Positions 1 to 16,032 are shown, counted from the first letter of the stretch. The stretch: 16,032 bases of DNA from Candidatus Fraserbacteria bacterium (GCA_037443265.1 JBBIOR010000031.1:1-16032); one strand, 5' to 3'. Translations and numbers: made by a program. Notes: a model not told the origin generated them from the sequence alone.

Positions 1-13
1 ATCCCGGGTGTGA

Positions 14-166
14 TCAGGGTTCGATCACTACCCCTCCGCCACCTCCAGTCAGCCCACCCAGCGCCATCAACCCGGTCCCGACTCCCATGGCCCGAAGCAC
101 CTTTCTACGTGTGAGTCCTCCCCGACCTTCCTTGACCTCTTCGTATGATTCCTTGCCGCAACACAG
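14..166 (-). pseudogene. Internally deleted paralog of the Tat-lipoprotein precursor: signal peptide fused directly to the C-terminal GGGGGVVIEP tail
   Basis: Reads (L)CCGKESYEEVKEGRGGLTRRKVLRAMGVGTGLMALGGLT-GGGGGVVIEP*. The first part matches the N-terminus encoded at 3022-3140 and the end matches the C-terminus at 2286-2318. CTG at 166-164 stands where the full copy has ATG; AGGAGG RBS at 182-177; the lipobox Cys is absent. Confidence 0.8.
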
Positions 167-218
167 TTTTCTTGTACCTCCTTCTTTGGCGAACTTCAAG
201 TCCACCTGTAAGGTAAGG
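48..218. repeat. Direct repeat, copy 2 of 3022-3190 (5' UTR, RBS and Tat signal coding region)
   Basis: 48-166 aligns ungapped with 3022-3140 with 9 mismatches in 119 nt by manual count. Similarity continues through ACTTCAAGTCCACC and TAAGG x2 (209-218). Confidence 0.95.
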
Positions 219-264
219 TGGGGTCGTGACCAAATTCGCTTTATATCAGCTCTTCTAGGAACGA

Positions 265-573
265 TCAGGTTTGCTCCAATCTCTGCATGCGCTTGCTGAG
301 CCACCTTCTTATGATCACTAATAAGGGAATATCCAGCAAGTTAAGAGCGACGAGGATGACCAACATGAGGGCTACCGTGCGCTGTTCGCTGGAGACAGCT
401 AGCAGCATGGCAAGCACTAACGCGATCCAGGCATTGATGAAAGCAAGTGGCTTCCAGCGGAAGAGGGCGAGAGCGAAGAGAAACTCAAGGATGATCCCCA
501 GGGTTAGCAAGGTCACTACTCCTCCCATGGAACTCAAGAAGGCTTCGATAGCTTCTACGATCCCGATTGGCAT
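265..573 (-). CDS. Small membrane protein (about 3 TM helices), candidate immunity protein
   Basis: 102 aa, three hydrophobic stretches and a basic C-terminus (RRWLSKR). Starts 3 nt after the stop of the upstream ORF. The immunity role is inferred from position only. Confidence 0.7.
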   Translation of the reverse strand: MPIGIVEAIEAFLSSMGGVVTLLTLGIILEFLFALALFRWKPLAFINAWIALVLAMLLAVSSEQRTVALMLVILVALNLLDIPLLVIIRRWLSKRMQRLEQT

Positions 574-576
574 GGG

Positions 577-945
577 CTATCTCTTTGCATCTCCTTCCAA
601 GAGGTTCTCCGGCGGAGAGAGCTTCAAGGGTCGGTAGAGCCTCTTAATGAGCACAGCTAGAACCTGTAGGGTGCCAAGAACGATGAGGATAACAGCAACC
701 ACAGGATGGCCGTCCTTAAAGGCCATCATAATGCCAATGGCTAAGCCCAGCCAGGACACGATTAACATCTCCAAGGGATAGAATCTGAGGGAGCGTGCTA
801 TCTTGGGATAACGTGCGATATTTCGAAAGTTCTTGCTCCAATCTATGAGGAAAATACCGCAAAAAGCCGCCACGGCTTGGATGAGGCCTATCCCGAGGAG
901 AAACCATCCATCTACCGAGGAACCCCAAAAACTCGTCAGCTCCAT
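577..945 (-). CDS. Small membrane protein (about 3 TM helices), candidate immunity protein
   Basis: 122 aa with three hydrophobic segments. Its strong RBS (TAGGAGGG) overlaps the TAG stop of the Cys-rich ORF 958-1500, which suggests translational coupling. Confidence 0.75.
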   Translation of the reverse strand: MELTSFWGSSVDGWFLLGIGLIQAVAAFCGIFLIDWSKNFRNIARYPKIARSLRFYPLEMLIVSWLGLAIGIMMAFKDGHPVVAVILIVLGTLQVLAVLIKRLYRPLKLSPPENLLEGDAKR

Positions 946-957
946 CTTGAATCCCTC

Positions 958-1500
958 CTAAGGTGCAGGACAATCAGCGGATGATGGATTGCAAGGTGGT
1001 GGAGGATTCCCTCCAGAATCACTACCCCCAGTACCACATCTGCCACAGGCACGTGCTGTAAAGTACGTCTCCGCCAGCAGGAAAAAGACACCGACCAAAC
1101 ATCCCGCTAATCCTGTAAGGCAAGCCGCACCAGTGCGCCAGGCACCATAGTAATGTCCTGCTGTACCAATCCCACACGCAACGCAGCTCTCTGCGTCTTG
1201 TGCAATGACACCCTGAGAAGAAGCAGTGCTAGGGAACAACTTGCCTGCTTGAACTACAAATTCTTTGTGCTGAATCAAGAGTTGATATAGTCTCTCACCC
1301 AGGGGCAAGAGTGGGGAGTCATCGATGCCCTTAAACAATTCAGCAAGCTGCTGAGCGCTCTGCTCGGAATCCGCACGAGTTACATCAACTTGCCTACCAT
1401 TCCAAGCTACGCTGACGCTATGTGCCGCGATCAATTCAGGATACCTAGTTTCCTCCTCACGATACCATTCAATCGTCCTTGCGGGATTCGGTTTTAGCAT
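958..1500 (-). CDS. Signal-less (probably 5'-truncated) precursor with a C-terminal Cys-rich peptide (tip 3)
   Basis: 180 aa. SSQGVIAQ junction, then a 79-aa tip with 8 Cys (CVAC...C-x6-C...CGRC plus a Gly/Pro tail). No Tat signal and no clear RBS; the ATG overlaps the stop of the orphan tip. Confidence 0.7.
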   Translation of the reverse strand: MLKPNPARTIEWYREEETRYPELIAAHSVSVAWNGRQVDVTRADSEQSAQQLAELFKGIDDSPLLPLGERLYQLLIQHKEFVVQAGKLFPSTASSQGVIAQDAESCVACGIGTAGHYYGAWRTGAACLTGLAGCLVGVFFLLAETYFTARACGRCGTGGSDSGGNPPPPCNPSSADCPAP

Positions 1501-1686
1501 TCATCCACCGCCACCATGATGGCACCAGCAGGGCCCACAACGGCGCCGCCGCAGCCGATACAGGAAACCCTAGTGGGTTCAGCTGCCACACGCTGAGCAG
1601 GCCACGCCAGCTGCGACTCCCGCGGCAACCGCCACCAGAATAGAGCCCAGACATCCCCAGAACCCCTGAGCACTCACGATAGTTTG
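1494..1686 (-). pseudogene. Orphan Cys-rich peptide tip (tip 2): no start codon, 1-nt frameshift
   Basis: Reads QTIVSAQ-GFWGCLGSILVAVAAGVAAGVACSAC. Removing one base at 1586-1587 continues it as AAEPTRVSCIGCGGAVVGPAGAIMVAVDEC* (TAA 1496-1494). The repaired peptide has symmetric Cys spacing and the same CAAxPxxxxC loop as tip 1. Confidence 0.7.
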
Positions 1687-1688
1687 AG

Positions 1689-2252
1689 CTAACGCTCTTC
1701 TTGATTCTTGACAAAACTCTTTACTATGAGACGAGGTGCGTTGAAGCCGTACACGCTCCAGGCAGCTGCCGTCATCGGTGGCAGGACCAAGGCCAAGGCC
1801 GTCTTGAGAAGCGGATCTTTGATGGATGGATACAGCGAGCACGTGAGATTGTTCCCAATGGTGGCACCTGTCCAGCCAAAAAGGTAAGCCAATCCCCAAT
1901 CCCCATAGATACCTTGGCGGATGGTTGTAAGATACACGAGGGTCGGTATGTTGAATACTGGCAAGAATATCTCATGCCTCGGGCGGATCTCATGCAGTAG
2001 GGTGCCTGACTTGCACCAGTCGTCAGGGGTCTCCACGAGAGAATTTAAACGTCCTGTGGCAAGTAGGAACCCAATTCCTGTGACAAAGTCTACCGCGACA
2101 GTAGCGAGCAGCTGCTCTTGTCCTTCAGAAGTGAGCCATATATCCCAAGGCCACCCTGATCCTTCTGCCTCAACTCCCCATAAAGTCGCCATTGTCACCA
2201 TCAAGAAAAGAATCATCATGCAGGATCCCAACTTACTCCTCAAAATTCTCAT
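1689..2252 (-). CDS. Membrane protein with N-terminal signal/TM segment, candidate immunity protein for tip 1
   Basis: 187 aa; basic-hydrophobic N-terminus ending ..VEA, then several hydrophobic segments. AAGGAGGG lies upstream; the gene starts 33 nt downstream of the precursor stop. Confidence 0.75.
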   Translation of the reverse strand: MRILRSKLGSCMMILFLMVTMATLWGVEAEGSGWPWDIWLTSEGQEQLLATVAVDFVTGIGFLLATGRLNSLVETPDDWCKSGTLLHEIRPRHEIFLPVFNIPTLVYLTTIRQGIYGDWGLAYLFGWTGATIGNNLTCSLYPSIKDPLLKTALALVLPPMTAAAWSVYGFNAPRLIVKSFVKNQEER

Positions 2253-2285
2253 GGTGATAGCCTGCCCTCCTTCTTACTTCTTACC

Positions 2286-3140
2286 TCAAGGTTCAATGAC
2301 GACACCACCTCCGCCACCGCATCCACCGCACGCCACACAAGCAGCAAGGCAGACTGCAGCTGCGAATGCTAGAGCAGCCTGACAATCTGATGAATTCGGC
2401 CATGCAGCACATATTATGGCGGCAGTCACCGCTGCAGCGGCACAGATAGCAGCAGCTGTTGAGCAACTGACTTCTTGTGCTTCCACGATACCCTCAGAGC
2501 TTTCTTGCATGCCATCCGCGATTTCCTCGGCTTTGATTCTTAAGAGTTCTTGGCGTACATGCTGCACAAGACCGCCCTCTTTGAGAATGTGCGCTACCGC
2601 TTGTTTCCATCGTTCACTATTGTTAATGATCTGAAATGTGCCTTCAAGAACGCCTTTGAAATGGGATGGAAGTTTGGAGATTTAAAATTCCTCAATAAAT
2701 TGCTTTTGCAATTGATATGCGGCCTCCTTGTCGTAACTATTCCACTGGAGCTTCATATTGAACTCCTGAGATATGCCAACCTTATGTAGTTTATCAAGGG
2801 CTTCTAGTGTCCACTGCTTCGCCGAATTGATTTTGACCTTGATGAGTTTTTTCTGCAAATGGCCATTTCGAGACTGATATGCCCTTGCGAGCGTGTGGAA
2901 TACATCCTTCCACTGATCTTTAGTAGCTTGTAGAAGTTTCACCAGATCAGAGTGATTCCCCTGGGCCAGTAAGGTGCTACGACTATCTTCACCACTTCTG
3001 GCTGTCCAATCGACACATCCCGTCAGCCCACCCAGCGCCATCAACCCGGTCCCGACTCCCATGGCCCTAAGTACCTGCCTTCGTGTGAGTCCTCCCCGAC
3101 CTTCCTTGACCTCTTCGTATGGTTCCTTGCCACAGCACAT
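2286..3140 (-). pseudogene. Tat-exported lipoprotein precursor with C-terminal Cys-rich peptide (tip 1), interrupted by one in-frame TAA
   Basis: ORFs 2682-3140 and 2286-2567 share a frame, and the gap is open apart from TAA at 2684-2682 (..FIEEF*ISKLPSHFKGVLEG..), giving 284 codons. Tat motif TRRQVL, hydrophobic core, lipobox LTGC, junction SSEGIVEAQ, 62-aa Ala-rich tip with 8 Cys. RBS AGGAGG at 3154-3149. Confidence 0.8.
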
Positions 3141-3190
3141 GACTTCTACCTCCTCTGTGGGCAGACTTCAAGTCCACCGGTAAGGTAAGG
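3022..3190. repeat. Direct repeat, copy 1 (matches 48-218)
   Basis: Direct sequence comparison, as described for 48-218. Confidence 0.95.
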
Positions 3191-3215
3191 TAAGGTAAGG
3201 TAAGGTAAGGTAAGG
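3181..3215. repeat. Pentanucleotide microsatellite (TAAGG)7
   Basis: Seven perfect TAAGG units; the paralogous position (209-218) has two. Confidence 0.98.
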
Positions 3216-3241
3216 ATAACACAACTTTAAAGATTTGTCAA
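3213..3241 (-). promoter_or_regulatory. Sigma70-type promoter for the peptide locus
   Basis: TTGACA (3241-3236), 17-nt spacer ending in TGT (extended -10 TG), TATCCT (3218-3213). Confidence 0.75.
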
Positions 3242-3275
3242 GACCCTTAAAAATAGAGACAAGCCCACGCACAAA

Positions 3276-4232
3276 TTAGAGGTCGCGAACGATCTCCGTC
3301 CCCGCCTGTCCCTCTAACGCTTCTTTCGCCTGTTCCAACGACGCAATGATCGCCCGCTCCCCGCCGTTCTCTAAAAACAGAATGGCCGCCTCAATCTTCG
3401 GCCCCATGCTCCCCGGCGGAAATTCTCCAGATTGTAAATGGCGCTTGGCCTCCTCCAGAGTGAGCCTCTCCAGATCTAGCTGCTGCGGCGTTCCATAGCG
3501 AAGAGTCACCCGCTTGACGTCCGTTAAAATCAGAAGCACGTGGGCACCCAACGCGGTAGCCAAGCGCTCGGACGCCAAGTCTTTGTCAATGACGGCCTCA
3601 ACTCCCCGCAGCCGCCCGTTCTCCCGCACCACCGGCACACCCCCTCCCCCACAGGCAATGACCACATGCCCGGCCGCCACCAGCTTGTGAATGACCCTCC
3701 ACTCCACAATCTCGATGGGCCGAGGCGAAGGCACAACTCGACGATAAGCCCGAGGTCCTCTCCCCACTCTTTTGATCACATAGCCCCGGGTCCGCTGCAA
3801 CGGCTCAGCTTCACTTAAAGAATAAAACGGCCCGATGGGTTTCGTAGGCTCCAAAAAGGCGGGATCGCACGCATCGACGACGACTTGAGTGATGACCGTC
3901 ACGACGGGTTTATTAAGCCCTTCTGCCCCGAGGGCCTCTCCCAGCGCCTGCTGGAGCAGATAGCCGATCTGGCCTTGCGTCATCGCTCCACAGACATCCA
4001 AGGGCCAAGGAGGCACAAGCTCTTGGGCCTGCTCCTGTTGGATGAGCAGTTGTCCCACGTGCGGCCCGTTGCCGTGGGTCAGTACCACCCGCGCGCCGCT
4101 CCCCACCAGGCGGGCGATCTGCCGGCACGTTCGGGCGATGGCCGCCCTCTGCTCTTGCTCTCCCCCATGGCCAGACAAGAGGGCGTTGCCTCCCAAAGCG
4201 ATGACAATCGTCTGTGGCCTTCGGCTGTTCAT
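3276..4232 (-). CDS. arcC: Carbamate kinase
   Basis: Motifs VIALGGNAL, THGNGP(H)VG, TQGQIGY, PTKPIGPFY, RRVVPSPRP, GGGGVPV, EAVIDKD and GSMGPKIEAA; 318 aa. Confidence 0.95.
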   Translation of the reverse strand: MNSRRPQTIVIALGGNALLSGHGGEQEQRAAIARTCRQIARLVGSGARVVLTHGNGPHVGQLLIQQEQAQELVPPWPLDVCGAMTQGQIGYLLQQALGEALGAEGLNKPVVTVITQVVVDACDPAFLEPTKPIGPFYSLSEAEPLQRTRGYVIKRVGRGPRAYRRVVPSPRPIEIVEWRVIHKLVAAGHVVIACGGGGVPVVRENGRLRGVEAVIDKDLASERLATALGAHVLLILTDVKRVTLRYGTPQQLDLERLTLEEAKRHLQSGEFPPGSMGPKIEAAILFLENGGERAIIASLEQAKEALEGQAGTEIVRDL

Positions 4233-4243
4233 GCGAGAGATTT

Positions 4244-5641
4244 TTAGACGTGCTCGACTTTGATGAGATTGGTCGTCCCCGGCACGCCGAAGGGGACCCC
4301 GGCCGTGATGATCACGGCTGCGCCTTTGGGGAGACTCATGGCCTCGGCGGCCGCCTCGATCGAGCGCCGGAGCATGAGATCCGTGTCTTTAAAGAACTCA
4401 ATCTGGATCGGATAGACCCCCCAGACCAGCGCCAGCTTGTTCTTGACCTTCTCGGAGTAGGTTACGGCCAGGATGGGGATGCGCGGACGGAATTTCGCCA
4501 CGAGCTTGGCCGTCGAGCCGGAAGTCGTCGAAGGGATGATGGCCGCAGCTTCAATGCGCTCGGCAATCTGGCAGGCCGACTCTCCAATGGCTTCTGGCAC
4601 TGTCGCGTGCTGGCCACGATATTTGTGATAAACAGAGGGAGCCTGTTCGATGCGCTGGGCAATCGTGCTCATCACCCGCACGGCCTCGATGGGATATTTT
4701 CCGATGGCCGTCTCCTCCGAAAGCATGAGGGCATCGGCCCCGTCGAGGATGGCGTTGGCCACATCGGCCACCTCCGCGCGCGTCGGGGTGGGATGCTCCG
4801 TCATCGATTTGAGCATCTGTGTGGCGATGATCACGGGTTTTCCGGCGCGATTGCACCTCATCACGATCTCCTTCTGCACCAGGGGGACTTCCTCGATGGG
4901 CAACTCCACGCCCAAGTCCCCGCGGGCCACCATCACCCCATCGGCAGCGTGGATGATCAGGTCGATGTTCTTCACGGCTTCGCGCGTCTCGATCTTGGCG
5001 ATCACATCGATGTTCGAATCTTTCAAAAGAGCCCGCACTCGGTGTAGGTCATCGGCCCGCTGGACAAAGGAGACGGCCAGATAGTCCACCTCCAGCTCGG
5101 CCGCAAAGCGGACGTGCTCATCCTCCTGATCGCTTATGGGAATGACCACCCCCGGGACGCTCACGCGCTTGCGTTCTCCCAGCAGGCCACTATTCAGAAC
5201 CCGGCAGACGACTTCCGGGGAGCGCACTTCGACTACGCGCAGCCGAATCTCCCCGTTGGCCAGAAGCACTTCCATCCCCGGCTTGAGATAGTGCGAAACC
5301 CCCTGTTGATTGATGGAGATGCGCGTCTCATCTCCCAAGATGGGCTCCTCTGTGAGGACCAGCTCCTGGCCCGCCTGGAGCCGGATGGTTTCGCCCTTGA
5401 GATCGCCTGTGCGCAGCGCGTGGCCCGGCGTGTCCACCATGACGGCCACGGCCCGCTGGAAGGCTCTGGCCACCTGCCGCACCCGCTGGGCGAGCAGGCG
5501 GTGCTCCTCCCGCGCACCATGGGAGAGATTGATCCGAGCCACGTCCATCCCCGCTCGGATCATCTCAGCCAGCGTCGGCTCATCCCAGGAGGCCGGACCT
5601 AAGGTGACTACGATCTTAGTTCGCTTCATCACCAATCCCAT
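4244..5641 (-). CDS. pyk: Pyruvate kinase
   Basis: Motifs KRTKIVVTLGPAS, ARINLSHG, IAKIE, DGVMVARGDLGVE, ATQML.SM, PTRAEVADVANAILDGAD and GTTN. The start could also be the Met at 5629. Confidence 0.97.
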   Translation of the reverse strand: MGLVMKRTKIVVTLGPASWDEPTLAEMIRAGMDVARINLSHGAREEHRLLAQRVRQVARAFQRAVAVMVDTPGHALRTGDLKGETIRLQAGQELVLTEEPILGDETRISINQQGVSHYLKPGMEVLLANGEIRLRVVEVRSPEVVCRVLNSGLLGERKRVSVPGVVIPISDQEDEHVRFAAELEVDYLAVSFVQRADDLHRVRALLKDSNIDVIAKIETREAVKNIDLIIHAADGVMVARGDLGVELPIEEVPLVQKEIVMRCNRAGKPVIIATQMLKSMTEHPTPTRAEVADVANAILDGADALMLSEETAIGKYPIEAVRVMSTIAQRIEQAPSVYHKYRGQHATVPEAIGESACQIAERIEAAAIIPSTTSGSTAKLVAKFRPRIPILAVTYSEKVKNKLALVWGVYPIQIEFFKDTDLMLRRSIEAAAEAMSLPKGAAVIITAGVPFGVPGTTNLIKVEHV

Positions 5642-5666
5642 TTCGAGCCTCGCGAGCCACAGCCAA

Positions 5667-5695
5667 ACTATATTGAGGACTCCAGGCCCAGTCTA
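5667..5695 (-). promoter_or_regulatory. Possible sigma70 promoter for pyk-arcC
   Basis: TAGACT (5695-5690), 17 nt, TATAGT (5672-5667). Confidence 0.4.
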
Positions 5696-5734
5696 TCAAG
5701 TCTCTAAGACAAAGCAAGCGACTGATCGAGATCA

Positions 5735-5763
5735 TTGTCCGCGGTGGTGCGAACCCTTATCAT
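5735..5763 (+). promoter_or_regulatory. Possible sigma70 promoter for the sdh operon
   Basis: TTGTCC (5735-5740), 17 nt, TATCAT (5758-5763). Confidence 0.45.
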
Positions 5764-5807
5764 AGTCAAAGCTTTCAGCGTTCAACCATCAGCGGAGGTG
5801 GAATCTT

Positions 5808-6530
5808 GTGGCAGCTGCTCTAGCGGAGCGATTGCCCTGGTGGCTCTCGCCGGCGACCGTCTTTGTGGGGCTCAGCGCGTTTGTGGTCTATGCGACCTGG
5901 GCTGTGGTCTTTGGAGAGGGCACCCATCAGTTCGAGAATTATCTCTCGCCGTTCTATTCGCCCTATCTGGGAGGGCTGGGTCTCCCCTTCTCGCCCGCCA
6001 TTCTCATCATGTGGGTGCCTTTGGGCTTCCGCCTGACTTGTTATTACTATCGAAAAGCCTACTATCGTGCGTTCTTCTGGGATCCTCCCGCCTGCACCCG
6101 AGGGGAACTGCGCGGCGAGCAATATCACGGCGAGACGAGATTCCCGTTCCTCTTGCACAATTTACATCGCTACTTTCTCTACGGCGCCCTCGTCGTCTGG
6201 GTCTTCCTAGCCATCGATACCGTAAGGGCCTTCCTCTTCGACGGGCACTTCGGCATACGACTGGGCTCATTGATCTTTCTGGCCAACATCGTGCTGTTGG
6301 GACTCTATACGTTCTCTTGCCACTCCTGGCGCCATCTCATCGGAGGGAATCTCGATTGCTTTTCCTGCTCGACCGCCGCGAAGCTGAGGCATGGGGCTTG
6401 GCAGAGGGTGAGCCTGCTCAACAAGAATCACATGCTGTGGGCCTGGACGAGCCTCGGCTCCGTGTCCTTGGCGGATCTCTATGTGCGGCTTCTGGTGGCC
6501 GGGATCATCACGGACCCGAAGTTCATCTGA
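5808..6530 (+). CDS. Succinate dehydrogenase membrane anchor, mycobacterial Sdh1 (Rv0249c-like) type
   Basis: About 5 TM segments; motifs YLSPFYSP, RLTCYYYRKAYYRAF, NLHRYF, SCHSWRH and HMLWAW. GGAGG RBS before GTG; directly upstream of sdhA-sdhB. Confidence 0.85.
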   Translation: MAAALAERLPWWLSPATVFVGLSAFVVYATWAVVFGEGTHQFENYLSPFYSPYLGGLGLPFSPAILIMWVPLGFRLTCYYYRKAYYRAFFWDPPACTRGELRGEQYHGETRFPFLLHNLHRYFLYGALVVWVFLAIDTVRAFLFDGHFGIRLGSLIFLANIVLLGLYTFSCHSWRHLIGGNLDCFSCSTAAKLRHGAWQRVSLLNKNHMLWAWTSLGSVSLADLYVRLLVAGIITDPKFI

Positions 6531-6544
6531 TCTGAGGGTACGCT

Positions 6545-8315
<1,771 letters not shown>

Positions 8316-8323
<8 letters not shown>

Positions 8324-9059
8324 GCCTACCCCGCCATCTTGGGTGCGCGTCTGGCGCGGCTCTTCCCAGGGAGGCGAATTTTTAGATTATAAAGTCCCCG
8401 GCGAGCCGGGCATGGTGGTGCTGGATGCCCTCCTGTATATTCAAGCCAACTACGCTCCGGATCTGGCGATTCGCTGGAACTGCAAGGCGGCCCACTGCGG
8501 CTCCTGCAGTGCCGAAATCAACGGGAAGCCCCGCCTCACCTGCAAGACGCGCCTTTCGGAATTCGAGGGCCAGATCATCACTGTCGCGCCCATGAGGGCC
8601 TTCCCGATCATCAAAGATCTGGTGACCGACGTCAAGTGGAATTATGAAGTGCTCAAGAAGATCCCGCCGTTTCAGCCGCAGCCAGATGCCAAGGAGCCTT
8701 GGACGATCTATCAGCGGGATATCGAGCGCGCACAAGAATTTCATAGATGCATCGAGTGTTTCTTGTGTCAGGACGTCTGCCACGTGCTGCGCACGCACCG
8801 CAAGATGGCGGAGTTTGCCGGACCGCGCTTTCTGATCAAACTGGCCGCCCTGGAGATGCACCCCCTGGACACGGGCCAGCGCCTGGAATTCATTAAAGAC
8901 GCAGCGGGCATCGGCTACTGCAACATCACCAAGTGCTGCACAGAAGTCTGCCCCGAGCAGATCACCATCACGGATAACGCGATCATTCCGCTCAAGGAGC
9001 GTGTGGCCGATGAGTTTTATGATCCGCTGCGCTGGCTGCTCCGAAAGCTCCGGGGCTAG
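8316..9059 (+). CDS. sdhB: Succinate dehydrogenase/fumarate reductase iron-sulfur subunit
   Basis: CKAAHCGSC..C [2Fe-2S] motif, CIECFLCQDVC and CNITKCCTEVCP. ATG at 8316 follows AGGAGGAG and overlaps the end of sdhA by 8 nt. Confidence 0.95.
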
Positions 9060-10017
9060 AATCCTTCCTCCTCTCCCAGGGGTTTTGCACGTGGCAGGGG
9101 CGTCCGGTCTTGGCTATGTAATCTTGATGATACTCCTCCGCCGGCCAGAAGGTCTGGGCCGGCTCCAGTTGGGTGACGATGCGTCTTTTACCGTACCGCC
9201 TGGAAGCCTCCAGCTCGCGGAGGAAGCGTTCCGCTTCCTGCCGCTGTTCTTCGCTCGTGTACCAGATCCCAGAACGATACTGCTGCCCTATGTCAGGCCC
9301 CTGCCGGTTCAGCTGAGTGGGATCGTGCATGTCAAAAAAAGCCTCTAAGAGCCGGCGGTAGCTGATCCGCTTGGGATCGTAAATCACCTTCACCGTTTCC
9401 GCGTGTCCGGTGTTGCCCGCGCACACCTGCTCGTAGGTGGGATGATCCACAGGCCCCTGCATGTATCCCGAGATGACGTCGATGACGCCAGGACCCTGCT
9501 GGAAGTAATGTTCAAGGCCCCAGAAGCACCCTCCGGCAAAGTAGGCCACCTCGGCCTCTACGGGACGGCTTTCCGGCGGAAGCTCCTCCCCCCGCTCGTA
9601 AAAGCGCAGGGCCGCGGAGTTGAGGCAATGGCGCTCCCCTGTAGGGGGCGGACCGTCATCGAACACGTGCCCCAAGTGCGCTCCGCAGCGGGCACATAGC
9701 AACTCCGTTCGCACCATGCCATGGGAGAGATCGGGCTTGCGCGCCACATGCTCGGGGTCGAACTCGCGGTAAAAAGAGGCCCAGCCGGTGCCAGATTCAT
9801 ATTGATGATCGCTTAAGTACAGCGGCAATCCACAGACGACGCAGACGTAGATCCCATCTTTGGGGTGGTCGACAAACTGGCCGCAGAAGGGCGGTTCGGT
9901 GCCAGCCTTCTGGGTGACGCGAAAGCTTTCCGGGTCCAAGCGGGCCGCTCGGCTCGCTACTTCTTCCTGGGGCAGGGGCGTGATGTCGTAATGGGATTTG
10001 GAATACCGCGGCTTCAC
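8992..10017 (-). CDS. msrAB: Bifunctional methionine sulfoxide reductase, MsrB (N-terminal) fused to MsrA (C-terminal)
   Basis: MsrB: GTEPPF, CVVC/CARC Zn pairs, HLGHVFDDGP, RHCLNS. MsrA: FAGGCFWG, TGHAE, HDPTQLNRQGPDIG, AEEYHQDY. RBS AAGGAGG before GTG. Confidence 0.95.
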   Translation of the reverse strand: MKPRYSKSHYDITPLPQEEVASRAARLDPESFRVTQKAGTEPPFCGQFVDHPKDGIYVCVVCGLPLYLSDHQYESGTGWASFYREFDPEHVARKPDLSHGMVRTELLCARCGAHLGHVFDDGPPPTGERHCLNSAALRFYERGEELPPESRPVEAEVAYFAGGCFWGLEHYFQQGPGVIDVISGYMQGPVDHPTYEQVCAGNTGHAETVKVIYDPKRISYRRLLEAFFDMHDPTQLNRQGPDIGQQYRSGIWYTSEEQRQEAERFLRELEASRRYGKRRIVTQLEPAQTFWPAEEYHQDYIAKTGRPCHVQNPWERRKDSSPGAFGAASAADHKTHRPHAP

Positions 10018-10066
10018 GGATGCCCTCCTTTATCTCGACTGGGAGTCTACCCGGGCATATAGGCCA

Positions 10067-10096
10067 TTGACAACTGGGCAGAGGATGCTCTACACT
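10067..10096 (+). promoter_or_regulatory. Probable sigma70 promoter for sodC (near-leaderless transcript)
   Basis: TTGACA (10067-10072), 18 nt, TACACT (10091-10096). The ATG is 8 nt further on and has no Shine-Dalgarno sequence. Confidence 0.55.
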
Positions 10097-10104
10097 GCCA
10101 GAAT

Positions 10105-10731
10105 ATGAGGGAGAGACGGCTGCTCAGCCTCCTGGTCATAGTCGCGGGGATCTGGGTTCTGGTAGTCCCCGCGTGGGCGGCCGAGGAGCGAGCTGTGGTG
10201 GAACTGCGCGACTCACAAGGGCAGCTCGTAGGCATCGCCATACTCGCACAAGAAGAGGCAGGCGTTCGCATCGGCGTGGTCGTGAAAAACCTAAGCCCTG
10301 GGCTGCACGGCATTCACCTCCATGCCGCCGGCACATGCGAGCCACCGGATTTCTCATCGGCGGGTCCTCACTTCAACCCGCTAGGCAAGAAGCACGGCTT
10401 GGACAACCCCCAAGGCCCTCATGCGGGAGACTTGCCCAATCTCGCAGTCGGGCCCGATGGCACGGGCATCCTGGACATCATCACGGAGCGCGTGACGCTT
10501 AAGGCGGGGCCGCTATCGCTCTTCGACGCCGATGGAAGCGCCCTGGTCATCCACGCCGGCCCGGATGATCAACAGAGCGATCCCGCGGGCAACAGCGGCG
10601 GACGCATCGCCTGCGGGATCATCCTGCCTCGCGTTGAACCAGGCCCCGGTGACGGCAGGCCTACGCTCTTGCTGCTCATATTGGTCGTCCTGACTGCGCT
10701 GCTCCTTCTCTTTCTAGGGGTGTTGCGCTGA
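10105..10731 (+). CDS. sodC: Cu/Zn superoxide dismutase with signal peptide and C-terminal TM anchor
   Basis: HGIHLH, GPHFNP, KHG, HAGDLPNL, VIHAGPDD and GNSGGRIACG; signal peptide ending AWA; Leu-rich C-terminal helix. Confidence 0.93.
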   Translation: MRERRLLSLLVIVAGIWVLVVPAWAAEERAVVELRDSQGQLVGIAILAQEEAGVRIGVVVKNLSPGLHGIHLHAAGTCEPPDFSSAGPHFNPLGKKHGLDNPQGPHAGDLPNLAVGPDGTGILDIITERVTLKAGPLSLFDADGSALVIHAGPDDQQSDPAGNSGGRIACGIILPRVEPGPGDGRPTLLLLILVVLTALLLLFLGVLR

Positions 10732-10738
10732 AAGACGC

Positions 10739-10767
10739 TTGACATCTCCTTGCGCAGATCATAAAAT
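10739..10767 (+). promoter_or_regulatory. Sigma70 promoter for bpsA-speD
   Basis: TTGACA (10739-10744), 17 nt, TAAAAT (10762-10767). Confidence 0.75.
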
Positions 10768-10884
10768 CTCCTTTGATCTCCAAAGGGGGAGCCGCGAGGT
10801 CTCCAGTCCAGGACCTCGCATGAGCGCTGGAAATTCCAACTACGCAGAGCTGTGGATTAGCTCTGCTCTAAGAGGAGGGGGTCA
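10768..10884 (+). promoter_or_regulatory. Structured 5' leader, candidate cis-regulatory RNA
   Basis: Perfect 8-bp stems GCGAGGTC/GACCTCGC (10794-10801/10812-10819) and GCAGAGCT/AGCTCTGC (10844-10851/10859-10866), plus CTCCTTTG/CAAAGGGG and TGGAAATTCCA, in about 110 nt before the RBS. Confidence 0.45.
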
Positions 10885-12012
10885 TTGGCTCGAACGAGCC
10901 TCTATGAGCGAATCCGACGGAAGACGACCGTACCGGCCACGGAGCGAGACGTCGAGCGGGTCCTCGCCAGCCTTAAGGCCGCGCAGGATATCTGGGAGCT
11001 CATGGGCATCTGTGACGTCCCGCTGGCTGTCTTGCCCGTCATCCTGGAGGAGTGTCAGCGAGAGGGCCTGCTGCGGCGGCAGGGGGATCGTTGGGAACTC
11101 ACATCGGCCGGTCGAGCCTTCGTCGAGGAGCGCGGCTGGACCCCTCTTCCATCAGCCCGCTGCCCGGCCTGCTTGGGCCGCGGCCTCGATCTCTCCCCCC
11201 TCCAGAAGCTCCTAGAAAAATTCACAAAGATCAGCGAAGATCGTCCGCCTGCGCACGCGGAGTACGACCAGGGATACGTGACGCCGGAGACGACCATCGC
11301 GCGCATCGCCCTCATGCGCCTCCGGGGAGATCTCGATGGCAAGAGGGTCATCGTGCTGGGGGATGATGATCTGGTGGGAATCGCAGCCGCGCTGAGCGGC
11401 TTTCCCCAGCATATCACCGTGCTGGAGATCGATCAAGATCTTGTGGCCTTCATTCAAGAGATCCAGGAACGCTTCGGACTCCCCAGGCTCGACGTGCGGG
11501 CTCATGACCTGCAAGACCCCCTGCCTCATGATCTTTTAAGGAGCTATGACACGTTTGCCAGTGATCCTCCGGAGAGCCTGGATGGATTCAAGCTCTTCGT
11601 AAGCCGGGGTCTAAGCACTCTCCGGGGCGAAGGGAGCGCGGGCTACTTTGGGCTCAGCCGCCATGAAGCCTCTTTAGCCAAGTGGCACCAGCTGCAAGCT
11701 TGGCTGCTTATGCAAGGTGCCGCAATCACAGACGTCATCGATGACTTCAACACCTATCTCCCCTGGCCCTACTGGGAGGAGATGCGTGCCCGCCACTGGC
11801 TGCAAATTCAAAGACCTCCCACGCGCCCTTGGTATCGCTCGACCCTCTATCGCGTTGAGCTGATTTTAGCGAAAGAGTACCCGAATGAGCCCTTCCAGGG
11901 GACGTTTGAGGATCCCGAGCTGGCAACTGTGGGCAGAAGCCCTTCCGGCACAGGAGGTGACAATGCGGCCGCTGGGACGACATCTCATCATGGACGCCTG
12001 GGAGTGCAATGA
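10885..12012 (+). CDS. bpsA: Branched-chain polyamine synthase (N4-bis(aminopropyl)spermidine synthase, DUF43)
   Basis: CPAC.GRG, YDQGYVTPETTIARIALM, LGDDDL, EID, DPPES, GYFGLS..EAS..KW and WYRS. TTG start after AGAGGAGG. Confidence 0.9.
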   Translation: MARTSLYERIRRKTTVPATERDVERVLASLKAAQDIWELMGICDVPLAVLPVILEECQREGLLRRQGDRWELTSAGRAFVEERGWTPLPSARCPACLGRGLDLSPLQKLLEKFTKISEDRPPAHAEYDQGYVTPETTIARIALMRLRGDLDGKRVIVLGDDDLVGIAAALSGFPQHITVLEIDQDLVAFIQEIQERFGLPRLDVRAHDLQDPLPHDLLRSYDTFASDPPESLDGFKLFVSRGLSTLRGEGSAGYFGLSRHEASLAKWHQLQAWLLMQGAAITDVIDDFNTYLPWPYWEEMRARHWLQIQRPPTRPWYRSTLYRVELILAKEYPNEPFQGTFEDPELATVGRSPSGTGGDNAAAGTTSHHGRLGVQ

Positions 12013-12379
12013 AGAGATCAATTCCGTGGAGGCCATCGCGGAAGCCTTGTGCGAGGCCGTCTCAAGAAGCCGGGCCACGCTGATCGAGCTGTTCGTCCAT
12101 CCCTTCACCCCACACGGGGTAAGCGGAGTCGCCGTGATCGCAGAATCGCACATCGCCGTCCACACGTGGCCGGAGAAATCTTACCTGAGCCTGGATGTGT
12201 TCACCTGTGGGGAACGCGCGATGCCTGAGGCGGTCATCGAGGTCTTTAAAGAGCGCTTCCGACCTGGGCGCTGCCACCTTATCGAGATTCCCCGCGGCCA
12301 GTGGCCCGCGACGGCGCAGAATAGCTTCGCTGTTTCTCACTCCGCTCGAAATAGCCTACAGCACGCCTGCGACAGTTGA
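11963..12379 (+). CDS. speD: S-adenosylmethionine decarboxylase proenzyme (short, class 1B type)
   Basis: LGRHLIMD, HPFTPHGVSGVAVIAESHIAVHTWPE (E-S pyruvoyl cleavage site) and DVFTCG. ATG 11963 follows GGAGGTGA. Supplies dcSAM for BpsA. Confidence 0.9.
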   Translation: MRPLGRHLIMDAWECNEEINSVEAIAEALCEAVSRSRATLIELFVHPFTPHGVSGVAVIAESHIAVHTWPEKSYLSLDVFTCGERAMPEAVIEVFKERFRPGRCHLIEIPRGQWPATAQNSFAVSHSARNSLQHACDS

Positions 12380-12427
12380 CTTCCGCTCCACCGGAGGCTA
12401 CCCTCTCTTCACGAGGTGATCCGCGGC

Positions 12428-13753
12428 ATGGCGCGATGGGAGCTCCGAATCGTAGGGCTCTTATTCCTGCTCGTCTCCGGCCTGCCGCTCACAGCTCAGC
12501 CGGAGATCCCCGTCACCGTGACGGTGACCCTCGACGGAAGGCCCGCCGAGGCCCTAATCAAAATCTTTCAGAATGAGCAGCTGCGGAGCGTAGAGTATAC
12601 CGATGTGCATACGCCCGGTCGCGCTCAATTCCAACTACCCCCGGGAGACTATACTCTGAGCGTCGAGCGCGGGGCCGGCTTCACAGCCCTACCCAAGACT
12701 TTGCCGCTGGCCGTCTCCAGCTCTGCCGTGGTGCTGGCTGCCCGTCTGGAGCGGGCACTCGATCCCCGCTCGCAGGGCTATTATTCAGCCGATTTGCACG
12801 CCCACTCTCTCGCGGGCAACGCAGCCATGGAACGATTCTTTCGGCTCCGCAACGAGGCGGCCACCCCCACAGATCAACTCGTGGGCGTGCAGATGGCAGC
12901 CGATCTCGACATCGTCTTCCTAAGCGATCACAACTCCGTCGACGGACACGAGCTCTTCGCCCGGACGGCCCGTGAGCGCGCTGTTCCCTTCCTCTTGAGT
13001 GAGGAGATCACCACGCTGGTGGCGGGCCATTTCAACCCCTATCCGCTCAACCCGGCAGAGCTGGTGGAATTCGATTTCAACAAGACACCCAGTCAATTCT
13101 TTGCCGAGGCTCGAGCCAAAGGGGCAGTGATCCTGCAAGTCAATCACCCTTACGATCCGCTCTTCGGCTATTTCCTCGAGCGCAATCGCGCGCTGTTCGA
13201 TCCCTCCTTTGACGCGGTGGAAGTCTTCAACGGCCCCTTCGACGAGACCGACCTTAGGACCATCCAACGGATGTTCGAGTTCTGGAACGAGGGTAAGCGC
13301 TACACGGCCGTAGGCGTCTCCGACGATCACGACTGGAAAGATCTGCTCACACAATACGGCACCCCGCGAACCTATGTGCTAGCGGGGGAGGAGCTTTCTG
13401 TGGAGAGATTCATCGCAGCGCTCAAGGCGGGTCGTGCCTTCGCCACGTATGGGCCACTGGTCTTCTTCACGGCCTTGGGCTTCGCCGTGCCGGGGGATAC
13501 GGTGCAGCTTAGAGCCGGTGAGAAGCTCTCGCTTAGGGCGGAGATTCAAAGCGTCACGCCGTTGGATGGACTGAAGGCCGAGATCGTCCATAATAGGGAG
13601 CCTCTGGGCTCGTTTGTGCTGCACGGCCTATCCCAGACGATCTCAACGGAGGATACCCCCACCCGCGCCGGCTGGTATGCCGTGCGCCTGCTCGACGCCC
13701 AGCAAAGATATCTGGCCCTGACCAACCCCATCTGGGTTGAACTAGGCTCTTAA
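12428..13753 (+). CDS. Secreted PHP-domain (CehA/McbA-like) metallohydrolase
   Basis: Signal peptide, N-terminal beta-rich domain, motifs DLHAHS, SDHN, SEEIT, GHFN, NHP, EVFNG, SDDH and terminal TNPIWV. Start placed at ATG 12428 (GAGGTG 9 nt upstream); GTG 12416 is the alternative. Confidence 0.75.
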   Translation: MARWELRIVGLLFLLVSGLPLTAQPEIPVTVTVTLDGRPAEALIKIFQNEQLRSVEYTDVHTPGRAQFQLPPGDYTLSVERGAGFTALPKTLPLAVSSSAVVLAARLERALDPRSQGYYSADLHAHSLAGNAAMERFFRLRNEAATPTDQLVGVQMAADLDIVFLSDHNSVDGHELFARTARERAVPFLLSEEITTLVAGHFNPYPLNPAELVEFDFNKTPSQFFAEARAKGAVILQVNHPYDPLFGYFLERNRALFDPSFDAVEVFNGPFDETDLRTIQRMFEFWNEGKRYTAVGVSDDHDWKDLLTQYGTPRTYVLAGEELSVERFIAALKAGRAFATYGPLVFFTALGFAVPGDTVQLRAGEKLSLRAEIQSVTPLDGLKAEIVHNREPLGSFVLHGLSQTISTEDTPTRAGWYAVRLLDAQQRYLALTNPIWVELGS

Positions 13754-13815
13754 GAAAAGATCGTATCGGAAAGCCCAGCCAGGATTCTATAATTGAATTT
13801 GAGGAGGGGATGTGC

Positions 13816-14607
13816 ATGAAGCAGCTCGCTGTGGCACTAAGCCTTGTGGGGATATTGATGGCCTTCTCTTGGGCGCAACCGGACAGCGGCCAGATGGAGC
13901 AGACTCCCGGAGCTCCAAAGTCCATGGATCAAAAGCAGCTCCAGAGGGAGATCATGCTGCTTCGACTCATCAACGAGATGGGCCTGAGCCAGGATCAGCT
14001 GACCACTCTCAAAGAGATCGTCTCAAGCTTGGAGGCCGGCCAGCAAGCCGTCCTCCAAGCCCAACAGGAACTCCGGGATTTCCTCGCCAGCTACTCAGGA
14101 ACTCCAGAGGGCTTCGCGGAAGCTGTCAAGCCCTATGATGAGAAGGTCGCTCAAGCTAGCAAGAACTTCCAAGAGAAGCTCCAGGCCTCCGTGGAGCGGG
14201 TCAAGAGCGTGCTCACCCTCAAGCAAGGCGAGATCCTGCACAAGTTCCTCCTGCAACACAGGCGCCACGCCCTCCAGAAATTTGCGATGCCCATGCCCAA
14301 ATGGCCTGAGGATATGGAGTTCCACAGGCGGGGGTATGCTCCTCCGAAAGACGCCTGGGAGAAGCTTAAGCAGCTAAAAGAGCAGATCGGGAGATGGCTA
14401 GATCGCTGGGGTATTGATCTCGATGCCAAGCGCCTTGAGAGACAACACGCCATGCCGCGCGGGGAAGAGATGCCCATGCATGGGGGCATCAGCTCGCTGG
14501 AGGGCGACTTCATCGAACGCTTCCTCATGCACCACCTAGATCTTCTAGATCTGCTAGAGAAGATCATCACGGAGAAGCTCCAGAAGATGGGCACAACTCA
14601 CATTTAA
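13816..14607 (+). CDS. Exported helical protein, Spy/CpxP-like (LTxxQ-type motifs)
   Basis: Signal peptide ending AFSWA; LSQDQ and LTLKQ motifs flank a coiled-coil; Met/His-rich segments. AGGAGG spacing favours ATG 13816; TATAAT at 13788-13793. Family assignment is tentative. Confidence 0.6.
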   Translation: MKQLAVALSLVGILMAFSWAQPDSGQMEQTPGAPKSMDQKQLQREIMLLRLINEMGLSQDQLTTLKEIVSSLEAGQQAVLQAQQELRDFLASYSGTPEGFAEAVKPYDEKVAQASKNFQEKLQASVERVKSVLTLKQGEILHKFLLQHRRHALQKFAMPMPKWPEDMEFHRRGYAPPKDAWEKLKQLKEQIGRWLDRWGIDLDAKRLERQHAMPRGEEMPMHGGISSLEGDFIERFLMHHLDLLDLLEKIITEKLQKMGTTHI

Positions 14608-15314
14608 CGCATCACAAGGTAGAGCAGCAGAACGGTTCCCAGCACTAGAAGAGCGGCCCAACGCCTAAGATCCTCCAACAGCGATGAGCTCTCTTCTCCA
14701 ACCGCCTGCCATTGGCGCATAAGCGCTTCCGCTTGCTGGACGGCCTGATCTAAACGTTTTGTGAGTTGCTCAGCTTGTTCTAGCGTTGCCAGGGCCCGCT
14801 GGGGAATTTGAGGATCTTTTACGAGCGCGTTGGCCGCATCCAGCGTCTCTTCCAACTGGGCAAGCACGCGGGTAAGCCGCTGGGAGAGCTCCAGCTCCGA
14901 GACAGTCCCCGCGCCGATGAGCATCTCTCCCGCCTTAAGAATGCGACCCTCGCCCGGCCCCGGCCAGATCTCCACATACTTTTCGCCCAACAGTCCGAGC
15001 ATCCCGATGAGCACCCGATCATCGGAGCGAATCTGAAGGCCCTTGGGCAGCCAGAGACGGAGTTCCACTTGCGTCACAGGCGAAGAGGCTTCACGGACGA
15101 TCCGGATGCCCTTCACCTCACCCACCTCTACGCCAGCGAACTTCACGGGTGCTCCCACCACCAACCCACCTGCCGACTCGAAGACCGCCCGAATCTCATA
15201 GCCCGTGCTCAGCACGCGCCAGTCCCGGATCGCCAGGACGATGACGGCCATAATCAGCAGCCCCAAGACCACGAACAGCCCAACCCGTAAGAGCAGACGG
15301 GGCTCCCTCTCCAT
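14604..15314 (-). CDS. mlaD: MlaD/MCE-family lipid transport protein
   Basis: N-terminal TM (RVGLFV), F.SAGGL.VGAPVKFAGVEVGEV, GLLGEKYVEIWPG, helical region and a second TM at the C-terminus. Confidence 0.88.
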   Translation of the reverse strand: MEREPRLLLRVGLFVVLGLLIMAVIVLAIRDWRVLSTGYEIRAVFESAGGLVVGAPVKFAGVEVGEVKGIRIVREASSPVTQVELRLWLPKGLQIRSDDRVLIGMLGLLGEKYVEIWPGPGEGRILKAGEMLIGAGTVSELELSQRLTRVLAQLEETLDAANALVKDPQIPQRALATLEQAEQLTKRLDQAVQQAEALMRQWQAVGEESSSLLEDLRRWAALLVLGTVLLLYLVMR

Positions 15315-15323
15315 GAAAGCCTC

Positions 15324-16031
15324 CTACGAGCGCCCGTAGGGGTGTCCCAAGAGGAATTCCCGAACCAGCGGCTCCTCCATGGCTTGAAACTCCTCCGGTG
15401 TGCCCCAGGCCACGATTCGGCCGCCTCCGAGTAACGCCAGACGATCCCCGATCTCGAAGGCCGTCGTGAGATCATGCGTCACAATGAGAGACGTGACGCC
15501 CAATTGATCTCTGAGTTTGCAAATGAGCGCGTTGATCTCCTGACCCATGAGGGGATCGACCCCGGAGGTGGGTTCATCGTACAAGATGATCTCGGGCTTT
15601 AGGGCGATGGCCCGCGCCAGCCCCACGCGCTTCTTCATCCCACCCGAAAGCTCGTTGGGGTACATCTCTTCAATGCCCTTAAGGCCCACCAGAGTGAGAC
15701 ACTCCCTCACGCGCTCGCCTATCTCCTTAGGAGGCATCCTCGTGTGCTCGCAGAGCGCAAAGCCGACGTTCTCAAAGACCGTCAAAGAGTCAAAGAGAGC
15801 CGCCTCCTGAAAGAGCATTCCGATCTTGAGCCGCACCCGATCCAGCTCCCGCTCAGAGAGCCTCGTGATCTCTACGCCGTCGATAAAGACGCGGCCGGCA
15901 TCGGGTCTTAGGAGCCCAATGATGTGCTTGAGCAGCACGGTCTTGCCACAGCCGCTTCGGCCCAAAATCACGAGTGTTTCCCCGCGCTTCACCGAGAGAT
16001 CTACACCGCGCAGGACGGGTCGGCCTCCTAA
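15324..16031 (-). CDS. mlaF: ABC transporter ATP-binding protein, MlaF/Mkl family (5' end outside the window)
   Basis: Walker A GRSGCGKT, FQEAALFDSLTVFENV, LSGGMKKRVGLARA, ILYDEPTSG and VTHD. The frame stays open to the window edge (LGGRPVLRGVDLSV). Confidence 0.9.
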   Translation of the reverse strand, partial: LGGRPVLRGVDLSVKRGETLVILGRSGCGKTVLLKHIIGLLRPDAGRVFIDGVEITRLSERELDRVRLKIGMLFQEAALFDSLTVFENVGFALCEHTRMPPKEIGERVRECLTLVGLKGIEEMYPNELSGGMKKRVGLARAIALKPEIILYDEPTSGVDPLMGQEINALICKLRDQLGVTSLIVTHDLTTAFEIGDRLALLGGGRIVAWGTPEEFQAMEEPLVREFLLGHPYGRS

Positions 16032-16032
16032 G

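Follow-up and report, generated by a model that had tools for sequence, protein, structure and literature searches.

A variable array of Tat-lipoprotein precursors and small membrane proteins in Candidatus Fraserbacteria, tentatively read as toxins with membrane-embedded immunity

Anatomy of the array

The DNA described here, called the window throughout, is a stretch of 16,032 nucleotides from a Candidatus Fraserbacteria bacterium (GCA_037443265.1) and corresponds to bases 1-16032 of contig C31 (JBBIOR010000031.1) in a genome (G000) of 1.69 Mb that is assembled into 44 contigs and is 88% complete. Base 1 of the window is base 1 of the contig, so the gene array that is our subject, at positions 14-3241 on the minus strand, sits at a contig end. 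The array is made up of genes for lipoprotein precursors with signals for twin-arginine translocation (Tat), whose hydrophobic, Cys-rich C-terminal parts are here called tips, and of genes for small multi-pass membrane proteins. An original prediction, made from the DNA sequence, had described the array as a polymorphic toxin cassette with seven elements on this strand; all seven are present and are given here with their parts (aa, amino acids).

3213..3241, minus strand: promoter-like TTGACA-17-TATCCT with a TG extension, matching at 10 of 12 positions; its -35 region and spacer recur upstream of the paralogs C21 and C7a
3179..3215, minus strand: perfect (CCTTA)7.4 tract between the -10 box and the Shine-Dalgarno sequence
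3141..3178, minus strand: conserved 5' untranslated region (5'UTR) with a GAGGAGG ribosome-binding site, within a block 84.5% identical to the syntenic locus of another genus
2286..3140, minus strand: gene 1, class-A Tat-lipoprotein precursor of 284 codons with a TAA inside (family profile E 6.8e-54)
3015..3140, minus strand: signal peptide of gene 1, codons 1-42, with an MCCGKE n-region, a TRRQVL twin-arginine motif and an LTGC lipobox
2286..2489, minus strand: tip 1, 67 aa with 8 Cys, two hydrophobic segments or helices and the end GGGGGVVIEP; the related tips of P0022 and P0036 are each 64% identical
1689..2252, minus strand: 187-aa membrane protein of a divergent partner family of class-A precursors
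1497..1698, minus strand: orphan tip 2 of the C-x18-CxxC-x8-CxxC-x17-C type, with neither body nor signal peptide and with one frameshift near 1583-1588 (two frames)
958..1500, minus strand: 5'-truncated class-B precursor, a 180-aa open reading frame (ORF) with tip 3 (8 invariant Cys, Gly/poly-Pro tail)
577..945, minus strand: M1, 122 aa, 3-4 predicted transmembrane segments, ratio of non-synonymous to synonymous substitution (dN/dS) 0.29 against locus L025
265..573, minus strand: M2, 102 aa, 3-4 predicted transmembrane segments, dN/dS 0.28 against L025
14..224, minus strand: remnant, a second 5'UTR (two CCTTA units) and signal peptide with a CTG start, fused straight to GGGGGVVIEP and a stop

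Gene 1 begins with MCCGKEPYEEVKEGRGG and LTRRQVLRAMG, which contains the twin arginine; a hydrophobic stretch leads to the lipobox LTGC (Cys42), behind which lie a helical body and then the tip. Its frame is broken by a single in-frame TAA at codon 153 (2682-2684), where paralogs have K, A or V, and the defect is not a frameshift. TAA is an ordinary stop in this genome, used by 295 of about 1,130 long ORFs, the neighbouring arcC included. Taken as a whole, the promoter scan yielded 2 sites where 2.6 would arise by chance, but the -35 region of the site at 3213-3241 recurs at paralogs.

The two truncated precursors in the middle of the array differ somewhat from what had been predicted. Tip 2 is a real and complete orphan tip, lying directly 3' of the stop of the 187-aa membrane gene and with its last codons overlapping the ATG of the 180-aa ORF, but it is frameshifted. 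It matches the last ~70 aa of two family members, P0034 (E 1.8e-15) and P0072 (4e-14), and this homology begins ~12 aa ahead of its first Cys. The 180-aa ORF, first described as a signal-less precursor, is present, but it is really the 3' half of a second and longer class of precursor, class B, and shares 53% identity with the C-terminal half of the class-B precursor P0006 (338 aa).

The emptied precursor copy at the far end is as described, a leader and signal peptide joined to a tail. Its bases 37-224 are ~87-91% identical to 3011-3196, with CTG in place of ATG and a coding part of 14-166, and the contig stops 13 nt past it. The tails of the remnant and of gene 1 encode the same decapeptide and differ at 9 of 10 codons, in every case at the third position; hence the remnant is a deletion derivative of a diverged paralog and not a copy of gene 1, and these synonymous differences suggest selection on the terminal peptide. 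Many family members have a Gly- or Pro-rich linker and a short tail that ends in Pro (VVIEP, VKIIP, EDLTP, ERITP, EVITP, CPEP, CPAP or DLAP), as seen at 14-46 and 2286-2318 of the window, in P0022, P0036, P0038, P0040 and P0064, and in class-B proteins.

Other assemblies contain parts of the array. A second assembly of the likely source run, which is not independent of the genome, covers 1651-3043 and has no difference there. Close variants of the class-B orphan and M1/M2 are found in run X3 (639-1479) and run X2 (489-1487), which come from a second sample of the same study and from a hot-spring metagenome of another study, and the X3 variant of the orphan has two 3-nt insertions (after 1110 and 1383) and substitutions that leave the reading frame intact. 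These two runs cover ~390-1487 and have no depth over ~1609-2948, a lack of cover that is not evidence of absence. A contig of X3 links the tail of the remnant to an apparent real tip, and a joint of 210 to 3015 in X2 is ambiguous because it falls inside the repeated 5' block.

The family, its 5' block and its partner genes

The genome contains further copies of the precursor family, of which C7a (283 aa) and C21 (295 aa) are intact, C7b is class-B-like and frameshifted, C16 is decayed, and two more are cut by contig ends at the end of C21 and the start of C22. Apart from weak matches to Tat signals, there is no family match in Pfam, NCBIfam, PADLOC or PHROGs. The Tat model TIGR01409 scores 17.8 bits on the paralog P0002 (cut-off 16.7), and the Tat signal of gene 1 is below the Pfam cut-off (14 against 22.7 bits). 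One other candidate, the invert_tail model NF058595 ('lipo-invert'), matched gene 1 only, at 14.7 bits against a cut-off of 37, and was rejected as compositional; weak matches to it occur in 14 of 14 control genomes and exceed the cut-off in none. The best hit in a search of PDB sequences is a designed three-helix bundle (E 0.054).

Relatives are few in number and narrow in distribution. A word-indexed search of 5.8 billion proteins returned 13, all unnamed or "hypothetical", and a profile search of 1.84 billion cluster representatives returned 87 at E ≤ 1e-3, 52 at E ≤ 1e-10 and 23 at E ≤ 1e-30. Within the phylum, 14 of 184 genomes match at E ≤ 1e-5, the window's own genome included, and all belong to one order; by family the counts are 4/8 in f1, 1/1 in f2, 1/4 in f3, 7/18 in f5 and 0/3 in f4, with 0/149 in six other families. 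A scan of genome contigs found 3 loci, all from one Candidatus Fraserbacteria metagenome-assembled genome (MAG). There were no matches in metagenome contigs, scanned with a protein pattern and a degenerate DNA motif, or in plasmid and phage collections, and no description of the family was found in the literature on lipo-invert or, judged by titles and the opening lines of abstracts, on Fraserbacteria. Judged by these searches, the family is undescribed, rare and order-specific, in agreement with the original prediction, which had recognised no described family.

The members follow the predicted plan: a Tat signal and a lipobox come first, then a body and a hydrophobic tip rich in Cys, and genes for membrane proteins lie downstream. 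The motif T-R-R-x-V-L-[KR] is invariant or nearly so and Cys42 of the lipobox ([LVI][ASTVI][GAS]C) is invariant, while TatC, two copies of Lgt and LspA are all found in the genome above their cut-offs, so that export and lipidation are predicted from the motifs and the machinery genes. Restricting the family to sequences of 200-400 aa whose final ~105 residues contain 4 or more Cys leaves a set of 71, five of which duplicate locus-derived rows, and nearly all have 4, 6 or 8 Cys. A common junction ahead of the tips, as originally proposed, is real in the three tips of the window but is not family-wide, since [AG]Q stands shortly ahead of the first tip Cys in 26 of the 71.

AlphaFold2 models built from shallow alignments (13 rows each) have in both classes a C-terminal two-helix hairpin after a confidently folded body. 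In the class-A precursor P0002 (predicted local distance difference test, pLDDT, 68.7; predicted template modelling score, pTM, 0.63) the body is all-helical and the hairpin helices are 210-240 and 247-269, and in the class-B precursor P0006 (pLDDT 70.4, pTM 0.69) a seven-stranded beta meander with helices precedes hairpin helices 253-283 and 286-305. The spacing of the Cys suggests staples across the hairpin, as in the C-x18-CxxC-x8-CxxC-x17-C pattern of type 2, and in class B it suggests staples formed by a CxxC at both ends of the hairpin and a pair at the turn. Fold searches with both models gave generic or weak matches only (best Foldseek E 0.16 and 0.062). The VIA searches reached Z 9.0 with a designed helix bundle and Z 5.2 with JlpA, and no solved structure was matched beyond the generic.

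Recurring types can be recognized among the tips, and in many cases a tip is more conserved than its body. Class-A bodies are 21-37% identical among rows, and the tip is 64% identical and the body 29% between P0001 and P0036, with values of 56% and 26% between P0029 and P0047. In a quick maximum-likelihood tree of 58 class-A bodies, from which the five duplicates and eight class-B or related rows were left out, the two largest tip clusters (15 labelled rows) need 1 change, which is the minimum, against a mean of 5.3 and a minimum of 3 in 300 shuffles. Because related rows share labels, this test, as far as the tree goes, shows that tips and bodies are co-inherited and nothing more. The proposal that the system diversifies by exchanging tips on a constant N-terminus is therefore not borne out: tip type tracks the body phylogeny, conservation falls away ~4 codons past the lipobox Cys, and the bodies are as divergent as the tips or more so. 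The class-B tips, with 8 invariant Cys and a constant downstream pair of genes, come close to the invariant C-termini in a constant gene context that the original prediction had itself named as telling against it.

The constant part of these modules is a ~210-nt block of promoter, (CCTTA)n, 5'UTR and signal peptide, and not the protein body. The repeat lies between the -10 box and the ribosome-binding site, and three family genes with other leaders lack it. Its copy number n is 7, 9, 3 and 2 in the genome and 11, at least 4, at least 4 and 6 in relatives, and one contig of X2 has an extra CCTTA unit at the remnant, and yet the distance from the end of the tract to the ATG is 40 nt in 8/8 copies that have a promoter or stand at a contig start. 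The sites are 3179-3215 in the window, C7:~40270-40320, C21:~28230-28250, L025:~4905-4960 and the contig starts of L014, L026 and L027; the contigs of several genomes start inside the tract or break in the shared block. The minimum free energy fold of the leader RNA pairs the repeat with the Shine-Dalgarno sequence, but it was dropped as evidence as it is no better than shuffles (z = -0.13). Rfam has no matches at E ≤ 1 in window 1-3400.

The block is also conserved at synonymous sites. Between genomes G000 and G001 its synonymous divergence (pS) is 0.13 for C7b and L027 (4 synonymous and 0 non-synonymous differences in 40 codons) and 0.19-0.22 in other pairs (several pairs 0.13-0.25), compared with 0.61 for pyk and 0.70 for arcC. 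Such low values suggest gene conversion or transfer, or selection that acts on the nucleotide sequence itself, and the block may serve as a common handle for expression and recombination. Whatever the function of the array, a 5' block that is more conserved at synonymous sites between genera than housekeeping genes are, and a pentanucleotide tract at a fixed distance from the start codon, are both unusual. The Tat n-region within the block opens with an invariant Met-Cys-Cys-Gly-Lys and continues as an acidic stretch (ETYEEVKEG), at window 3126-3140 and in all MCCG-type paralogs, and is conserved across genera; one idea is that it is a dedicated site for a signal-peptide chaperone.

Modules pair a precursor with its own kind of membrane protein. 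One or more multi-pass membrane ORFs are predicted directly 3' of 16 of the 18 tips across the loci examined, the exceptions being tip 2 of the window and the second gene of L028. Four of five class-B-type tips (window, L025, L027 and L030) are followed by a homologous M1+M2 pair (E down to 1.5e-44), and the most divergent class-B tip, C7b, has an unrelated 196-aa membrane protein downstream; M2 has only five relatives among the 5.8 billion proteins, one of them on a contig equal in length to the one with two class-B precursors. Six class-A precursors are followed by members of a weakly related partner family with a signal peptide and transmembrane segment, Gly-rich segments and an LP..AA...G[FY]N end. 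M1 and M2 are under purifying selection, as their dN/dS values show, and intact partner genes stand next to broken precursors, namely gene 1 with its TAA and C7b and L027 with their frameshifts. Truncated orphan tips with membrane genes downstream, another element of the original prediction, are found in the window (1497-1698 and 958-1500, then M1 and M2) and in L025 (6567-7037, then four transmembrane genes). A complex prediction for tip 3 with M1 and M2 scored 0.00 and, run without controls, is evidence neither way.

The same site has different contents in another genus. At L025 (genus g2, same family) a pyruvate kinase with 80% protein identity to that of the window adjoins an array of its own. 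By blastn the two regions match over pyk and arcC (74% over 2,360 nt), over the 5' block (84.5% over 213 nt, ending ~4 codons past the lipobox Cys) and over the 3' part of M1 with M2 (77.8% over 424 nt), and between these blocks there is no DNA similarity. In L025 the first precursor is a different one, and after it the locus has two other membrane genes, a class-B orphan of its own, a tandem of two additional M1-like genes and then M1, M2 and xseA. The G+C content of the window is 51.5% in bases 1-3270 and 60.1% in the rest. Conflict genes are close by in two genomes (L025:3723-4744; L027:1960-2895; G000 C7:38406-38687, C7:36449-36622 and C21:30334-30696): the L025 array has upstream of it a HicB-like gene and a Gp49-type (Gp49/HigB-like) toxin with a helix-turn-helix partner, L027 has a whole or fragmentary Rce1-like CPBP intramembrane protease beside it, and HicA-like fragments, under the Pfam cut-offs, adjoin C7b and sit at the end of C21. 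The region is one end of a hypervariable island of order-specific modules.

The remainder of the window (3276-16032) contains ordinary genes, namely a carbamate kinase-type amino-acid kinase (arcC), pyruvate kinase (pyk), succinate dehydrogenase/fumarate reductase subunits, MsrB-MsrA, a Cu/Zn superoxide dismutase, BpsA, AdoMet decarboxylase, MlaD and an ABC ATPase. The Cu/Zn superoxide dismutase at 10105-10731 may be membrane-anchored, to judge from a signal-like segment at its N-terminus and a hydrophobic stretch at its C-terminus (LLLLILVVLTALLLLFLGVL). The gene for the flavoprotein subunit contains at its 3' end (8260-8295) a perfect (CCAGAA)6 hexanucleotide repeat, translated there as QNQNQNQNQNQ; the repeat also overlaps the region where the iron-sulfur subunit ORF is listed as starting, and there the other frame gives TRTRTRTRTR.

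Candidate functions of the array

We tentatively favor the proposal that the array encodes a membrane-targeting toxin, either bacteriocin-like or a contact-dependent lipoprotein, together with membrane-embedded immunity. We do so because class-specific partners are intact beside broken or truncated precursors and are present in extra tandem copies, and because of the orphan fragments, the variable content at a fixed site, the low G+C content and the toxin-antitoxin neighbors. Each module would have two parts. One would be a Tat-exported lipoprotein precursor with a helical (class A) or beta-plus-helical (class B) body, ending in a hydrophobic alpha-helical hairpin of ~60-90 aa whose 4-8 Cys are placed so as possibly to staple the two helices, and the other a single small multi-pass membrane protein, or two of them, from a family that goes with the class of the precursor. 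The folded precursor would keep the hairpin in soluble form, pass through Tat in its folded state and be lipidated. The hairpin would then be inserted into the membrane of a neighbor, either uncleaved or after a cut close to the [AG]Q junction that is frequent in the family, while the cognate membrane protein would neutralize it in the producer and its kin. The anatomy and distribution of the family, the pairing of modules, the synteny with variable content, the orphans and the selection on the partners are observed; toxicity, immunity, processing, localization and disulfide formation are the parts of this scheme that we infer.

A more far-reaching version, which we regard as doubtful, is that the array represents a new class of antagonism, in which Tat-exported, lipid-anchored pro-toxins would keep a disulfide-stapled hydrophobic alpha-hairpin hidden in a soluble carrier fold until delivery and class-specific membrane proteins would neutralize it. 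Whole modules would be swapped behind the ~210-nt handle, which is nearly identical across paralogs and genera, with repeat length tuning or switching expression, and the system would be a functional analogue of halocin C8 that is either independent of it or too diverged to recognize. If a toxin-immunity function is correct, Tat export with a lipid anchor and a Cys-stapled hydrophobic hairpin would be a new export route and payload for bacterial competition, the array would offer a first way into the functional biology of an uncultured candidate phylum whose genomes are ~2 Mb, and it would be a source of naturally diversified small membrane-active peptides with matched neutralizing proteins.

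Several points weigh against a toxin. Searches of Pfam, NCBIfam, PADLOC, PHROGs, PDB sequences and the halocin models reveal no resemblance to known families of toxins, bacteriocins or immunity proteins, and the fold searches give generic matches only. A hydrophobic two-helix C-terminus may be a simple membrane anchor, and the CxxC-loop-CxxC motifs are potential metal sites. The array structures are incomplete, since most loci were recovered from fragmented MAGs in which contigs end within the shared 5' block. The tips are conserved types co-inherited with the bodies, and the partners belong to conserved families, which fits a non-toxic two-component envelope complex equally well. That complex is itself a possible, if rather unlikely, explanation of the array: the precursors would be variable envelope lipoproteins, anchored by lipid at the N-terminus and by the hairpin at the C-terminus, the membrane genes would encode assembly or anchoring partners, and strain variation would serve, for example, in phage or predator evasion or in adhesion, with expression switched via the 5' block and (CCTTA)n as in Mycoplasma and Borrelia. 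The boundary between conserved and variable sequence at the signal peptide, the several gene copies per genome, the synonymous conservation of the 5' block (pS 0.13-0.25), the range of n (2 to 11) in a tract whose distance from the ATG does not change and the inheritance of tips with bodies are all in its favor, and it accounts at least as well as a toxin would for the last three. A 5-nt repeat in an untranslated leader would, however, have no obvious on/off effect, and the leader fold is no better than shuffles, while antigenic variation leaves unexplained the class-specific partners that are intact beside broken lipoproteins, the tandem partners and the toxin-antitoxin neighbors.

The Cys motifs of the tips lend themselves to a different account, in which the precursors are membrane proteins that bind a cofactor or metal or act in thiol-redox chemistry. 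Paired CxxC motifs would bind a metal or cluster or relay redox equivalents, the partner would complete the complex, and Tat would be used because the protein folds with its cofactor ahead of export. The Tat signal motif, the CxxC-x6-10-CxxC that recurs at the hairpin turn in the tip-2 type and the class-B arrangement of a CxxC at both hairpin ends with 8 invariant Cys are as would be expected, but the number and spacing of Cys vary widely by tip type (4, 6 or 8) and many tips lack CxxC, no cofactor-binding family is matched, and strain-variable arrays, orphans and pseudogenes are unusual for redox housekeeping, and we consider this account improbable. It is very improbable that the array has no current function and consists mostly of decaying pseudogenes or is an artefact of assembly at a contig end rich in repeats. 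The nonsense codon of gene 1, the frameshift in tip 2, the truncation of the third gene, the internally deleted last copy with its CTG start, the contig end 13 nt beyond it and the contigs of several genomes that break in the shared block are what decay or misassembly would leave behind. Against this, C7a and C21 and copies in relatives are intact, the partner genes are under purifying selection, the second assembly of the likely source run has no difference over 1651-3043, and the 9 synonymous changes in the tail of the remnant show that it is not a copy-paste chimera of gene 1.

Comparison with known systems

The archaeal toxin halocin C8 was the model named in the original prediction. Its precursor, ProC8, is described in the available part of 10.64898/2026.07.27.741052 (citing Sun et al. 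2005) as a protein of ~283 aa with a Tat signal, an N-terminal body that is itself the immunity protein, and a hydrophobic Cys-rich C-terminal part of ~70-80 aa; the bacterial homologues surveyed in that part are from Bacillota, Nitrolancea and WOR-3, and the Fraserbacteria lineage is not among them. The array thus shares with halocin C8 a Tat signal on a precursor of about this length and a Cys-rich hydrophobic C-terminus, and differs in having a lipobox and separate downstream genes for membrane proteins. As the prediction had stated, the likeness is one of architecture and not of homology. The halocin domain TIGR04449 (halocin_C8_dom) has 0 matches in a six-frame search of the whole genome, with control matches in Haloferax volcanii, and no match at E ≤ 1 in NCBIfam scans of the precursors, and PF22862 (Hac8_like_N) has 0 matches at E ≤ 10 in the genome and 13 family members. 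A search with a protein language model placed the halocin C8 cluster at rank 4 with a score of 0.79, which is below threshold and is taken as a lead only.

Orphan arrays are familiar from contact-dependent inhibition (CDI) and Rhs systems, where truncated copies with their own partner genes occupy strain-variable loci. The MafB/MafI loci of Neisseria are similar in that, as far as the available text of PMC4287609 describes them, a gene with a signal peptide and a small partner are followed by 5'-truncated orphans with partners at strain-variable loci. MafB, CDI and Rhs proteins have a large conserved N-terminal domain on which C-terminal toxins are swapped, whereas only the 5'UTR and signal peptide are constant in the Fraserbacteria array, which also differs in its predicted Tat export with a lipobox and in having no known toxin domain.

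The SitA toxins of Myxococcus, which are transferred by outer membrane exchange, are not known to be of the Tat type and have enzymatic C-terminal toxin domains that act inside the cell. Like the precursors described here they are multi-copy, polymorphic lipobox proteins with adjacent immunity genes, according to the parts of PMC5562445 and PMC8546572 available to us. There is no sequence relation between the two, and the Fraserbacteria tips look membrane-active rather than enzymatic. TspA, the membrane-depolarizing type VII toxin of Staphylococcus aureus, has a membrane-active C-terminus and, downstream, small multi-pass immunity proteins (TsaI) that are sometimes in tandem (PMC7456083, in the part available). 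TspA and the Fraserbacteria array differ in export, which is by the type VII secretion system for TspA and by a predicted Tat/lipoprotein route here, and they have no homology. To our knowledge, a Cys-stapled hairpin is not a feature of TspA.

The Vlp and Vsa lipoproteins of Mycoplasma and the Vmp lipoproteins of Borrelia combine a conserved block of promoter, 5'UTR and signal peptide with divergent mature lipoproteins and a simple-sequence repeat by the promoter. We know of no cognate membrane-partner genes or Cys-rich hydrophobic tips in these families. Their repeats lie in the promoter spacer or in the coding region, and changes in repeat length switch expression, whereas the tract of the Fraserbacteria array is located in the leader and varies in length between copies and between genomes.

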